A stretch of 64,000 bases of DNA from Gammaproteobacteria bacterium. Lineage in GTDB: Bacteria > Pseudomonadota > Gammaproteobacteria > Steroidobacterales > Foliamicaceae. Under the pieces are notes generated by a model that worked only from the letters and a program-made list of their open reading frames with translations, searched no databases and was not told where the DNA came from. Numbering within the stretch: position 1 is the first letter of the stretch; each line of letters opens with the position of its first letter. Position numbers and translations under genes: made by a program. The stretch is taken from positions 1,807-65,806 of the forward strand of contig OZ243929.1 in the NCBI GenBank assembly GCA_965213995.1. The letters run 5' to 3'. Of this stretch, positions 7,536 through 58,177 are shown piece by piece.

Positions 7536-7632
7536 CGGGCTGGCCTCCTGGGGGGTGGGGGTGGCGGCGCGGATTCAGCCGTTGAGAATAGCACATGCCA
7601 GCCTTATTTCTGATCTTTCTGTGCTTCCTTCG

Positions 7633-7739
7633 CCCGGTTATTGCGCCACTTCTCGCGGGAGACGCATTCGTCATCCATGACGCTTGCCGAGAGGCATCCT
7701 GCCTTCGACACTCCCGCGAGAAGTGGCGCAATAACCGGG
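7633..7739. repeat. Long-stem hairpin A1 (29-bp perfect arms, 49-nt core loop; core in reverse orientation)
   Basis: 7633-7661 CCCGGTTATTGCGCCACTTCTCGCGGGAG is the exact reverse complement of 7711-7739. The loop is homologous to those of A2, B, C and E. Confidence 0.85.
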
Positions 7740-7773
7740 CTTGGCTGGTGCTGGCCGGGCTGGCGGCAAGCAA

Positions 7774-7883
7774 GCCTGATTCGCAGCCCCCCTTCCCGCA
7801 GGGGCGTCTGGGGCAGGGATGCCCCAGCCGAGCGTCAGGATGACTTCATGCGTCCCCTGCGGGAAGGGGGCTGCGAATCAGGC
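7774..7883. repeat. Long-stem hairpin A2 (~30-bp arms with a 1-nt bulge, 49-nt core loop; core in forward orientation)
   Basis: 7774-7804 pairs with 7854-7883. The loop is CGTCTGGGGCAGGGATGCCCCAGCCGAGCGTCAGGATGACTTCATGCGT. Confidence 0.85.
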
Positions 7884-23863: not shown

Positions 23864-24112
23864 CTAGCCCGCATATTGCGCCAAGCCGCTTGTTGCCTTC
23901 CTTATTTTGCTGATTAGTCAATGGCTTGTGCCCGGAATGTCCGCTTTCCGCCTAATGCGGAACGCGCTGGCCGCGTTCCCGCTGGTCTTTTGCCCGCTTG
24001 CGCGCGCATGCTCGCTGCGCCATAGGCATGGCTATGCCTTCGCTCGCGAGCACGCGCAATCGGGCAAAATCCTGCGCGGCCTCCGCGCCCCTTGGTGCAA
24101 TATCCGGGCTAG
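23864..24112. mobile_element. MITE-like 249-bp element E with 22-bp terminal inverted repeats, containing a family hairpin (23988-24069)
   Basis: The left end CTAGCCCGCATATTGCGCCAAG matches the reverse complement of 24091-24112, CTAGCCCGGATATTGCACCAAG, at 20 of 22 positions. Inner hairpin: arms 23988-24004 and 24053-24069 with a 48-nt loop. No transposase gene is present. Confidence 0.55.
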
Positions 24113-55409: not shown

Positions 55410-56417
55410 TCAGATTTGCAGCATCCTTGCCACCGCGAGGCGCGCCCGCTCGGCGGTGGCCGCGGGCACGCGCACCTCGGGCTGAAGGCTTTCCAGCGCG
55501 GCCAGGATCTTAGGCAGGGTAATGCGCTTCATGTGCGGGCAAAGGTTGCAGGGGCGCACGAAATCCACATCGGGATGCTCCACCGCCACGTTGTCGCTCA
55601 TCGAGCACTCCGTGACCATGACCACGCGGCGGGGTTTGCGTTCGCCCACGTAGCGGATCATTGCCGAAGTCGAGCCAACAAAGTCGGCTTCCGCCAGCAC
55701 ATCGGGCGGGCACTCCGGATGGGCGATCACTTGGATTCCCCGGTGCGAATTCCGATAGCTCCTTATTTCGCCGGCCGTGAAGCGCTCGTGCACTTCGCAA
55801 CTGCCCTCCCAGAGAATCATCTCGACATCGGTCTTGCTGGCAACGTAGCGGCCGAGATAGCCATCAGGAAGAAAGATCACGCGGTCCGCGCCAAGCGATT
55901 CGACAATCCGCACGGCGTTCGCCGAGGTGCAGCAAATATCGGACTCGGCCTTGACCTCGGCGGAGGTGTTGACATAAGTCACGACCGGCACGCCCGGATA
56001 TTTCTGCTTGAGCAAGCGCACATCCTCGCCGGTGATGGCGGCCGCAAGCGAACAGCCGGCATCAAGATCGGGGATCAGAACCGTTTTTTCCGGCGCTAGG
56101 ATCTTGGCTGTTTCAGCCATGAAATGCACGCCGCACATGAGAATCACCCCGGCCTCGGCCTCGGCGCCCAGTCGGGCCAGCTCCAGTGAATCCCCGGAAT
56201 GGTCGGCAACTCCGTGGAATATCTCCGGGGTCTGGTAGTTATGCACCAGAATCACAGCGTCGCGCTCGCGCTTGAGCTTGTTGATGCGGGCGATGTACGG
56301 AGCGTGCAGAGGCCATTCCACCTCGGGGATGACATCCGACAGCCGCGCCCATACAGGCGCGGTGGCGCGCCGGACATCGGCGTTGAAATCAAGATGGCTG
56401 CTGGGCTGCATCTGCAT
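55410..56417 (-). CDS. nadA: Quinolinate synthase
   Basis: 335 aa with ILVHNYQ, CGVHFMAETAKIL and the family-wide Cys pattern. Confidence 0.93.
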   Translation of the reverse strand: MQMQPSSHLDFNADVRRATAPVWARLSDVIPEVEWPLHAPYIARINKLKRERDAVILVHNYQTPEIFHGVADHSGDSLELARLGAEAEAGVILMCGVHFMAETAKILAPEKTVLIPDLDAGCSLAAAITGEDVRLLKQKYPGVPVVTYVNTSAEVKAESDICCTSANAVRIVESLGADRVIFLPDGYLGRYVASKTDVEMILWEGSCEVHERFTAGEIRSYRNSHRGIQVIAHPECPPDVLAEADFVGSTSAMIRYVGERKPRRVVMVTECSMSDNVAVEHPDVDFVRPCNLCPHMKRITLPKILAALESLQPEVRVPAATAERARLAVARMLQI

Positions 56418-56479
56418 TGGAATCCTCTGTTTGCCGGACTGTAATGCTACAAATGAGCATAAGGCTTGTCAAACACCCT

Positions 56480-56712
56480 CCGCCCTCCCGCCAATTCCTC
56501 TGCCGGGATTGTCTGGGCGCTTCGATCCCGCCTTTCTTGGCCTCATCCTCTTCCGTGAGACGCATGAACCCATCCATGGGGCTTGGCGGCGACTCCTGTC
56601 GCCGGCACTCCCGGAAGAGGATGAGGCCAAGAAAGGCTATAGCCGCTCATTTGCTTATTCGGATAGAGGCACCGAAGGATTAGGCTGGGTAGAGGAATTG
56701 GCGGGAGGGCGG
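56480..56712. repeat. Nested hairpins: outer C' (22-bp arms 56480-56501 and 56691-56712) enclosing inner C (29-bp arms 56531-56559 and 56608-56636, 48-nt core loop)
   Basis: CCGCCCTCCCGCCAATTCCTCT pairs with AGAGGAATTGGCGGGAGGGCGG. CCTTTCTTGGCCTCATCCTCTTCCG pairs with CGGAAGAGGATGAGGCCAAGAAAGG. The inner loop begins ACGCATGAACCCATCCATGG, the family core in reverse orientation. Confidence 0.85.
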
Positions 56713-56735
56713 GATAGGCGGGCTAGAATGGCAGG

Positions 56736-57650
56736 GTGGCCGAAACGATCAGCGTGGAGCTCAGCGCGGTTGTATTGACCGTGGCTGACAACGAACCCAT
56801 GGTTCTGGCGCTCAGGGACGAAGGCAAGGCCAGATTGCCCGGTGACCGCCTGCGGATCACGCGCGATCAAACGCTGGAGTTCGGCACCCGGCGGCTGCTG
56901 CGGCGCCAAGTGGGCTTGGAGCCCGCATGGCTGGAGCAGCTCTATACTTTCGGCGACCGGCGCCGCAATTTCTGGCCGCGCATTCCCGACCGAACCATCA
57001 CCGTAGCGTATCTTGCGCTGGTGCGGCATGACCTGTGCTCAGCCAGCGCGGAATGGCGGCGCTGTTACGAATTCTTTCCTTGGGAAGACCAGCGCATGGA
57101 GCAAGGGCAGCGCGATCCAATCCGGCAGTCCCTTGGAGCCTGGAAGGGCAGGGCGCGCGCCGATGCCACTCGCGCGGCGCGCGCCGTCCGGATCGACCGC
57201 TGCCTAGGCTTGGGCAAGGCCGGCTGGAATCCCGATCTTGTTCTTGAGCGCTACGAATTGCTTTATGAAGCGGCGCTGGTGAGCGAAGCCTGGCACGACC
57301 GGGGCGCCCCGGCGCCGGCCTCGCGCATCCTGAGCGGCTCGGGCATGGCGCTGGATCACCGGCGCATACTCGCCACCGCTCTTGGGCGGATGCGGGGGAA
57401 GCTGCGCTACAGGCCGGTGGTGTTTGAGCTGATGCCGGCGGAGTTCACGCTGTTTGAACTGCAGCGGGTGATTGAATCCATCATAGGCCGCAGCCTGCAC
57501 AAACAGAATTTCCGGCGCCTCGTAGCAAACCAGCGGCTGGTCGAGGACACCGGAGTGCGCAGGGCGGGCACCGGCGGGCGGCCCGCGCGGATGTACCGTT
57601 TTCGCAGCGATGTGCTTGACGAGCGGCGCGCCGCCGGCGTGCTCTCCTGA
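56736..57650 (+). CDS. NrtR-like Nudix-related transcriptional regulator
   Basis: Nudix-like N-domain followed by a C-terminal wHTH segment FTLFELQRVIESIIGRSLHKQNFRRL...RPARMYRF, typical of NrtR. It is divergent from nadA. GTG start as in the track. Confidence 0.7.
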   Translation: MAETISVELSAVVLTVADNEPMVLALRDEGKARLPGDRLRITRDQTLEFGTRRLLRRQVGLEPAWLEQLYTFGDRRRNFWPRIPDRTITVAYLALVRHDLCSASAEWRRCYEFFPWEDQRMEQGQRDPIRQSLGAWKGRARADATRAARAVRIDRCLGLGKAGWNPDLVLERYELLYEAALVSEAWHDRGAPAPASRILSGSGMALDHRRILATALGRMRGKLRYRPVVFELMPAEFTLFELQRVIESIIGRSLHKQNFRRLVANQRLVEDTGVRRAGTGGRPARMYRFRSDVLDERRAAGVLS

Positions 57651-57794: not shown

Positions 57795-57900
57795 TATTTT
57801 CTGCGTCCGAGTGTCCCACGCCGCCCCACGACACCGACTTTGCAGGCTGGCGCGATGCGCCGCCTAGCCCGCATATTGCACCAATCTGCGCCAGCTAAAG

Positions 57901-58128
57901 CCCTTTTCCTGCCCCTGCCTCGCGGGAGCGTCTGGGGCAGGGCGAGCATCGGTCGCTGCGCGCAGCGCAGCGAGGCAAAGCATGCCTTTGCCAGATGCGA
58001 GCGGGACGGCAGGAGGCCGGCCCCGGGCGTGATTCCGGCACTGCCGCGCGGCAGGGATGCCAACAGCAACTTGGGGAAGCATGAGGATGGGTTCATGCGT
58101 CTCCCGCGAGGCAGAGGCAGGAAAAGGG
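57901..58128. repeat. Long-stem hairpin B (28-bp arms with 1 mismatch; 172-nt loop = family core interrupted by a 114-nt insertion)
   Basis: 57901-57928 CCCTTTTCCTGCCCCTGCCTCGCGGGAG pairs with 58101-58128. The loop starts CGTCTGGGGCAGGG and ends GAGGATGGGTTCATGCGT. GGCAGGG is duplicated at 57936-57942 and 58050-58056. Confidence 0.85.
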
Positions 58129-58177
58129 CGAGGGCGAGCGAAGGCGAAGGCATAGCCGCGCCTATGGCGCCGCGGCC

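Follow-up and report, generated by a model that had tools for sequence, protein, structure and literature searches.

The stretch analysed here (the window) comprises 64,000 nucleotides of contig OZ243929.1 from a Gammaproteobacteria bacterium of the Foliamicaceae (assembly GCA_965213995.1). In it, the nadA gene (55410–56417, minus strand; PF02445) is separated by a 318-bp spacer from a divergent gene encoding an NrtR-like protein, whose open reading frame (ORF) runs from a GTG at 56736 (PF21906, WHD_NrtR); some gene callers start this gene at an ATG at 56799 (283 aa). These starts and the spacer length agree with an earlier note on this DNA, which described a hairpin within a hairpin in the spacer, read it as one element inserted into the loop of another, and placed the promoters and an NrtR operator under it. 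We consider it probable that the nest is a stack of small, non-coding, selfish palindromic repeats, acting at the DNA level, and that the spacer which took them up, flanked by the divergent promoters of nadA and the nrtR-like gene, is permissive and hypervariable.

The outer inverted repeat delimited by the repeat finder is 25 nt long and 96% complementary, and contains the 22 perfect base pairs noted before (56480–56501 and 56691–56712), with 189 nt between these perfect arms. The inner one has 30-nt arms with one mismatch and a 48-nt gap, which coincides exactly with the core assigned to it earlier. Inverted repeats of 18 nt or more whose partner lies within 400 nt number only nine in the whole window, and five of them are hairpin elements of this kind. 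The pairing of the nested hairpins is far beyond chance. The RNA fold of the block has −161 kcal/mol (z = −11.7 and −10.7 on the two strands against shuffles), and its DNA fold −89.6 kcal/mol (z = −13.75), none of 200 shuffles being as stable.

The inner hairpin belongs to a repeat family, here called HP elements, which is defined by an alignment (A1) and a covariance model (R1) built on 62 copies. Positions 56532–56635 match the full model R1 with 104.4 bits (E = 9e-24), a canonical copy and, as had been proposed, a complete one. In alignment A1 the consensus consists of GCC, about 20 variable pyrimidine-rich bases, CGCGGGAG, the core and the complementary arm. The core, of 47–50 nt, opens with ACGCATGAA, followed by a 4-bp hairpin (NNCA-TCC(N)-TGNN), GCT and a second hairpin of 9–10 bp, which has an ATCC/CTCC-type loop and a conserved G-A mismatch; overall, the loops of the two mini-hairpins are of the CATCC type. 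The arms, 28–33 bp long, vary between copies and are about 98% Watson–Crick within each copy. Across the 62 copies, 95.4% of the cells are paired; covariation scores 0.763, compared with 0.200 in shuffles (none of 500 reaches the observed value) and 0.13–0.16 with slid partners. The basal pair of the second mini-hairpin alternates between U-A (36 copies) and C-G (26 copies). The window contains three intact HP copies, the inner hairpin among them, and one that is interrupted (Table 1).

Table 1. Positions of the nested hairpins, the adjoining control elements and the other HP copies in the window. Relatives are denoted by our L numbers; 98% relatives are those whose NadA is 98% identical to that of the window.
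Feature	Position	Strand	Basis and remarks
Whole inserted block, 245 bp	56473–56717		Comparison with empty-site relatives L128, L129, L133, L134
Outer hairpin, left arm	56480–56504	+	Repeat finder; identical in 98% relatives; only at this locus in ~0.75 Mb
Outer hairpin, right arm	56688–56712	+	Perfect complement in the window lineage only; 98% relatives have ACTGGGGAATGGAGG
Left remnant of outer loop, GGGATTGTCTGG	56505–56516	+	Resembles the start of a core in reverse orientation no better than chance
5' extension of the inner element, GCGCTTCGATCCC ("class F" flank)	56517–56529	+	Same motif directly upstream of 13 family copies
Inner HP, left arm, pyrimidine-rich	56530–56559	+	Repeat finder, covariance model
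Inner HP, core	56560–56607	+	Covariance-model alignment; both mini-hairpins covary
Core junction ACGCATGAA	56560–56568	+	
Core mini-hairpin 1, CCCA-TCCA-TGGG	56569–56580	+	
Core mini-hairpin 2	56584–56607	+	
Inner HP, right arm, purine-rich	56608–56637	+	Repeat finder, covariance model
Right part of outer loop	56638–56687	+	Third HP of the 98% relatives lies between 56671 and 56672 (GATAGAGG / CACCGAAGG)
Predicted nadA promoter and 21-bp palindrome, outside the nest	56442–56472	−	Consensus match; invariance in seven lineages
TAGAAT, −10-like, of the nrtR-like gene	56724–56729	+	6 nt before GTG; spacing kept in all relatives
Family member A	7632–7740	+	91.5 bits
Family member A2	7774–7883	−	106 bits; orthologues in L063 and L054 with other yet complementary arms
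Family member B	57900–58129	−	108-nt insert (57943–58050) in the loop of mini-hairpin 2

The history of the spacer was followed in relatives retrieved through their NadA homologues. All lineages share an invariant block, TAATGCTAYAARTGAGCATAA-N4-GTCAA, and in all relatives examined a TAnAAT hexamer (TAGAAT, TACAAT or TAAAAT) stands exactly 6 nt ahead of the nrtR-like GTG, so that spacer length can be given as the distance from the conserved TGTCAA to TAnAAT. This distance is 6 nt in L128 (NadA 91% identical), 29 nt in L129 (90%), 34 nt in L133 (87%) and 64 nt in L134 (87%), all of them empty sites; 245 nt in the window, where it holds the nest; 353 nt in the 98% relatives (L123, L125, L126, L127, L131 and L135); and about 390 nt in L132 (NadA 92%; ~1790–2180), which has an unrelated insert with a called 72-aa ORF. 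The element-free alleles identify 56473–56717 as an insertion. The earlier note had held that its nested-insertion reading would fail if relatives shared the arrangement as a conserved leader with no element-free allele, and four of them have such alleles. The left arm and the inner hairpin (119 bits) recur in the 98% relatives, which have in addition a third HP with a variant first half of the core, located between GATAGAGG and CACCGAAGG (57 bits in L123, 51 bits in L127) and absent from the window; the outer right arm of these relatives is degenerate, and as a result there is no outer hairpin. An independent HP of 69 bits occupies the site in L137 (964–1059; NadA 90%); its arms and its core subtype are different, and its orientation is opposite. 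Conversely, the window has hairpin B with its flanks, both of which the 98% relatives lack. The nadA–nrtR spacer is thus a hypervariable insertion hotspot, which has been colonised independently more than once, with hairpins gained or lost inside the outer loop. In L124 (ERZ23500506 scaffold_428, ~2270–2445) one half of the inner hairpin, that on the nadA side, continues from within the core into an arm belonging to another copy and into an unrelated neighbouring gene; either copies have recombined, or the assembly is chimeric at the repeat.

The arms and loop of the outer hairpin have no second occurrence in the sample of about 0.75 Mb of related DNA, which is small and biased to copies matching one pattern. 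The earlier note saw in the ends of the outer loop a weak resemblance to a forward-oriented core. This likeness is at chance level: the local alignment of loop and core scores 19, against 18.1 ± 3.0 for shuffles, nhmmer finds no match in any of 35 excision variants, and the covariance model reports none. The sequence TTCGATCCC ahead of the inner arm, assigned to the outer loop in that note, belongs not to an outer core, but to the inner element as its own conserved 5' extension; this extension, GCGCTTCGATYCC (class F), precedes 13 HP copies in otherwise unrelated contexts. With the inserted copies removed no core is recognisable, and HP membership of the outer hairpin is unproven. Around other HP copies, a search with exact 10-mers revealed no outer inverted repeats within 200 nt. 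The proposed insertion of one element into another is right in substance for the inner layer, and a third HP lies in the same loop in the 98% relatives; for the outer layer it is unproven. HP copies are often found beside or inside disrupted ones: 46 of the 130 core matches that nhmmer finds in the sampled DNA have another within 300 nt, and copies lie inside disrupted copies at L026, L050, L101 and L044. A decayed older copy is for this reason the most economical reading of the outer hairpin.

The live alternative is that the outer palindrome is not an element at all and was formed locally, by inverted duplication or template switching of the sequence on the left, only the inner hairpin and the relatives' third HP having been inserted. 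The confinement of its arms and loop to this locus and the absence of significant core similarity speak for such an origin, and the right edge does carry a local tandem duplication (GGCGGGATA/GGCGGGCTA). The 98% relatives, in which the left side is the same and the quasi-complementary right side differs in one compact block, fit it as well. However, the empty-site relatives lack the entire 245-nt block together with the outer arms, so that the left outer "arm" is itself inserted DNA. The residual complementarity in the 98% relatives (GGGGAAT-GG against GAGGAATTGG) indicates that an ancestral outer palindrome already existed, and the left arm end, CCTCTGCCGGGAT-TGTCTGG, resembles the inner-arm end of the family, CCTCGCGGGAG-TGTCGG, a likeness that is suggestive, not significant. 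We regard a purely local origin as unlikely.

How the arms change over time is apparent from orthologous loci in different metagenome-assembled genomes (MAGs). In five hand-picked orthologous pairs (an automatic pair search passed only one and added none), the cores are 97% identical (227/235), the arms 82% (247/302) and the flanks about 75%, and each copy keeps its own two arms complementary despite the divergence. Most arms are private: 68 of 91 match only their own partner, and the others have matches in orthologous copies or in paralogues of recent origin. Within one MAG, paralogous copies have long arms that are about 90% identical, which makes the arms part of the heritable unit. Two changes of this kind can be followed within the nest. 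The middle of the inner arm reads GCCTCATCC in the window and TCATCCTCC in the 98% relatives, with the opposite arm altered to match, in a spacer that is otherwise almost identical. On the outer right side, GTAGAGGAATTGGCGGGAGGGCGG in the window corresponds to ACTGGGGAATGGAGG in the 98% relatives, a difference of one compact multi-base block; the outer left arm is identical in both lineages, and the window version of the right arm is its perfect complement. Template switching between the arms of inverted repeats is known to homogenise them (PMC7202029, PMC8604942), and the compact change in the outer right arm reads as the classic signature of quasipalindrome template switching. From these simultaneous changes, which raise or preserve complementarity, we infer that such homogenisation keeps drifting arms paired. 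With its natural examples of concerted arm change between strains related at 98%, the family lends itself to the study of how template switching homogenises palindromes.

Conservation and covariation of this kind could also mean that HP elements function as structured RNAs, each with a three-way junction and two hairpin loops, and that the nest consists of two or three such modules. The strong covariation of the mini-hairpins and of the basal pair, the 97% identity of the cores beside flanks of about 75%, and the presence of the same core in a second phylum-level group, the Desulfuromonadales, all favour this possibility. The reverse strand has CA(N)GGAUG in both loops, which resembles the CsrA/RsmE binding consensus, and the spacing of the two sites, about 22 nt, would suit one dimer; we take this similarity as a lead, not as a test. 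Against it, G-U pairs are almost absent: the long stem is 98% Watson–Crick with 8 wobble pairs in about 1,736 cells, and the arm mismatches (CA 15, CT 12, TC 7, CC 5, TG 4, GT 3) show no wobble enrichment on either strand. Orientation relative to the genes in tandem spacers is unbiased (19 same, 13 opposite). Stem composition, mismatch types and orientation point to complementarity at the DNA level. The nest, moreover, lies upstream of both predicted promoters and is thus probably untranscribed, and a perfect 30-bp RNA duplex is a substrate that would attract RNase III. Rfam contributes no support: over the whole window at gathering scores the sole match is a tRNA, and at E ≤ 10 the region 56400–56760 gives only microRNA-type matches (24.9 and 20.1 bits; gathering scores 90 and 70), which align just a generic long stem. 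A structured RNA is therefore a distinctly improbable identity for these hairpins.

The genomic distribution of the copies is consistent with repeats that are tolerated. They are intergenic in 75 of 94 cases, over-represented in convergent spacers (25/65, against 96/543 in the background) and under-represented in divergent ones (8/65 against 105/543). An excess in convergent spacers with a deficit in divergent ones is the usual footprint of tolerated selfish repeats. The nest as a stack of such repeats could have arisen as follows. The outer palindrome would be a decayed, older element or else a locally built palindrome, whose loop took in the inner copy. HP elements would spread as DNA, probably via single-stranded hairpin intermediates and with an enzyme supplied in trans. 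Their arms would be re-copied from each other by replication template switching, possibly aided by selection for hairpin formation.

Several results weigh against this scheme. No outer-hairpin-only allele was found among the relatives compared, and the order of insertion is inferred; the missing core of the outer loop and the small, biased sample, both described above, count in the same direction. The comparison of filled and empty sites, at the nadA–nrtR spacer and at hairpin B, gave no clear target-site duplication: the junctions of the outer block (TCAA|ACACC...GATAG|GCGG) have none, and those of the third HP (GAGG|TGCC...GAAGG|CACC) leave a 2–3-nt ambiguity only. No transposase or other dedicated gene was found with the copies, whose recurrent neighbour families are ordinary (such as TonB receptors and ABC transporters), and tblastn with YafM (RAYT) and IS608 TnpA (IS200) sequences, a weak test, returned nothing below E = 0.1 in the sampled DNA. 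Finally, the contrast between core and flanks suggests that every copy is under constraint, something not expected of a purely selfish element. Since core subtypes are stable at orthologous loci in the five pairs, gene conversion between copies is an unlikely cause of this conservation.

The predicted promoters and the putative operator are found beside the nest rather than under it. The predicted nadA promoter, on the minus strand, has a −35 box TTGACA (56472–56467), a 17-nt spacer and a −10 box TAGCAT (56449–56444), and matches 10 of 12 consensus positions of a sigma-70 promoter (shuffles give 0.1). It is overlapped by a 21-bp imperfect palindrome, TAATGCT-N7-AGCATAA (56442–56462), and the block containing both is invariant in seven lineages. 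NrtR operators are 21-bp palindromes that overlap promoters and usually have a GT-N7-AC core (PMC2330246); the palindrome at 56442–56462, with its core CT-N7-AG instead of GT-N7-AC, is a plausible candidate for one. The nest begins at 56473, 1 bp upstream of the nadA −35 box, and ends 6 nt before the −10 region of the nrtR-like gene, so that by prediction it lies outside both transcripts and outside the core promoter of nadA. The nrtR-like mRNA itself looks leaderless, given that TAGAAT precedes the GTG by 6 nt and that this spacing is kept in all relatives. The regulatory placement proposed earlier, with promoters and operator under the hairpins, is consequently wrong: the conserved block adjoins the nest. 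The hairpins do not qualify as operator or leader, being absent from L128, L129, L133 and L134, while the adjacent 56442–56462 fits. The putative NAD-responsive control region is thereby reassigned to the 31-bp conserved block, and the hairpins become dispensable, lineage-specific neighbours. The outer loop contains nine bases, GCTCATTTG (56646–56654), that are an inverted repeat of nine bases of the operator-like palindrome (56451–56459); the match could be due to chance (the expectation is roughly 5%) or could be a trace of local inverted duplication.

The palindrome is 245 nt away from the nrtR-like −10 in the window, compared with 6–64 nt in the empty alleles, and the outer right arm now covers only the −35/upstream region of the nrtR-like gene. 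Under the scheme above the nest is neither leader nor operator, and its only plausible effects would be to move that −10 some 245 bp from the shared operator, to supply new −35 and upstream DNA, and to place cruciform-prone DNA next to the nadA −35 box. Another reading is that the nest was co-opted as regulatory DNA of nadA and nrtR, as a cruciform or insulator between the divergent promoters or as a new −35/upstream region. Its position, abutting the nadA −35 by 1 bp and interposed between palindrome and nrtR-like −10, would suit such a role, and the negative supercoiling that arises from divergent transcription promotes the extrusion of cruciforms. Yet the length of the spacer changes from lineage to lineage (6, 29, 34, 64, ~390, 245 and 353 nt), which argues for tolerance rather than function, HP copies are depleted in divergent spacers, and the hairpins contain nothing that is conserved beyond this lineage. 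We hold co-option to be highly improbable.

Among known repeats, HP elements work like those of the REP/REPIN and MITE types, yet they fail testable defining features of each named family. They share with REPINs, the REP doublets that RAYT transposases mobilise, a high copy number, an extragenic location, a size of about 100 bp and a single long hairpin, and they likewise persist at orthologous sites, occur in clusters and are commoner away from promoters. REPINs, too, often show compensatory changes between the two sides of the hairpin; they have invariant 16-mers at their two ends and a less conserved middle (PMC3116915). In HP elements the centre is invariant and the arm columns are variable (~40–60% identity in alignment A1), and the arms, which begin with GCC and end with GGC, are not REP palindromes and have no GTAG at their ends. 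The CGTC-tagged REP superfamily has no known transposase, includes larger hairpins, favours convergent or unidirectional spacers (Di Nocera et al. 2013, PMC3733652), and forms head-to-head dimers with structured spacers, its stems being of 8–9 bp with a 4–5-nt loop (PMC3733652). HP elements are similar in having no known transposase, in their larger hairpins and in their spacer preference, and on the reverse strand their second mini-hairpin, with a 7–10-bp stem and a 3–6-nt loop, is preceded by CGTC/TGTC. However, in CGTC REPs the first pairs of the stem are A/T and a CCA tail follows, whereas HP stems start with G/C and lack CCA; the tag of CGTC REPs is unpaired, while the end base of the HP "tag" pairs and shows covariation (columns 53 and 78; UA 36, CG 26); and HP elements possess a second hairpin and 30-bp outer arms.

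The small non-autonomous inverted repeats classed as MITEs (Correia/NEMIS, RPE) and the mosaic clusters known as BIMEs resemble HP elements in their nesting or mosaic arrangement and in presence/absence polymorphism between strains. MITEs, in contrast, have family-wide terminal inverted repeats and target-site duplications, while HP arms differ between copies. The attC sites of integrons offer an analogy only: they are recombination substrates set by a folded single strand and have variable complementary arms, but they also have conserved R/L boxes at the ends, extrahelical bases, cassette arrays and a nearby integrase, none of which is seen here.

The HP family looks undescribed, with an unusually conserved folded centre. 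No HP match was found in plasmid and phage collections, viral contigs gave 11 matches to the core pattern, all chance or coding, and a literature search by junction sequence returned primers and similar matches only. In species-representative genomes the 19-nt core pattern occurs at more than 110 places, about 77 of them with flanking arms. Nearly all armed copies are in a few assemblies titled "MAG: Gammaproteobacteria bacterium" and in one MAG of Candidatus Foliamicus. The window genome belongs to this same group of MAGs, since the NadA of one of them, CAR4_bin_12 (GCA_026708965.1), is 98% identical to its own; from their sample codes we presume these MAGs to be sponge-associated. A short-armed version with the same core and inner stems of 13–15 bp is present in several Desulfuromonadales MAGs (L013, L014, L020, L023, L028, L041, L064, L085 and L102). 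Three of the Desulfuromonadales copies are found 75–95 nt upstream of start codons, in the ACGCATGAA orientation.

The HP element reverses the usual pattern of such repeats, having a conserved centre and arms that are private but perfectly paired. Tentatively, and with considerable doubt, the core can be pictured not merely as a transposon fossil but as a selectively maintained three-way-junction module, with loops CATCC/GGATG, common to sponge-associated Gammaproteobacteria and Desulfuromonadales. It might be recognised by a hairpin-specific single-strand DNA recombinase or act as a two-site CsrA-type RNA, the 30-bp arms being continually re-templated to give each copy a private, perfectly paired stem. 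The reversed conservation pattern and the concerted arm changes also make HP elements convenient for hunting the enzyme that moves palindromic repeats without a transposase of their own. Hundreds of these hairpins in symbiont genomes could also be mistaken in annotation for regulatory RNAs, terminators or CRISPR-like repeats.

Other identities of the HP element were considered and rejected. A small ORF in the inner copy (GGGAG-N4-ATG, encoding a basic peptide) is ruled out by the variation of the cores between 47 and 50 nt and by copy A, which has no ATG. The arms do not serve as guides, as they match only their own partners or orthologous and paralogous copies. Hammerhead, twister and other ribozyme cores do not fit the junction sequences, and Rfam gives no match. 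In a T-arm-like reading of GGCGCTTCGATCCCGCC the loop-closing pair would be C-C.

Tandem arrays of HP units occur in L043 (1459–1840, five copies with a period of ~95 nt) and L059 (1518–1790, three copies with a period of 96 nt), and in both the pairing is restricted to the outermost arms. In the window, copies A and A2 form a pair (7632–7883) that is kept as a pair at the orthologous locus in OZ220729.1 and VYBN01 (the L063 and L054 loci). The 108-nt insert in hairpin B is flanked by a GCAGGG direct repeat and has no match elsewhere in the sampled DNA. Hairpin B itself lies within an insertion of ~310 nt (57865–58177) that the 98% relatives lack, in the spacer separating a tRNA gene from a gene for an Lhr-type helicase. 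A MITE-like element of 249 bp that looks unlike HP is located at 23864–24112; it has 22-bp terminal inverted repeats (CTAGCCCGCATATTGCGCCAAG and CTTGGTGCAATATCCGGGCTAG), and its terminal 20-mer is also found in L104, L118 and L107. Hairpin B is flanked by one terminal repeat (57865–57884) and an internal piece (58144–58170) of this 23.9-kb element, which indicates that the intergenic regions here are mosaics of at least two repeat families.

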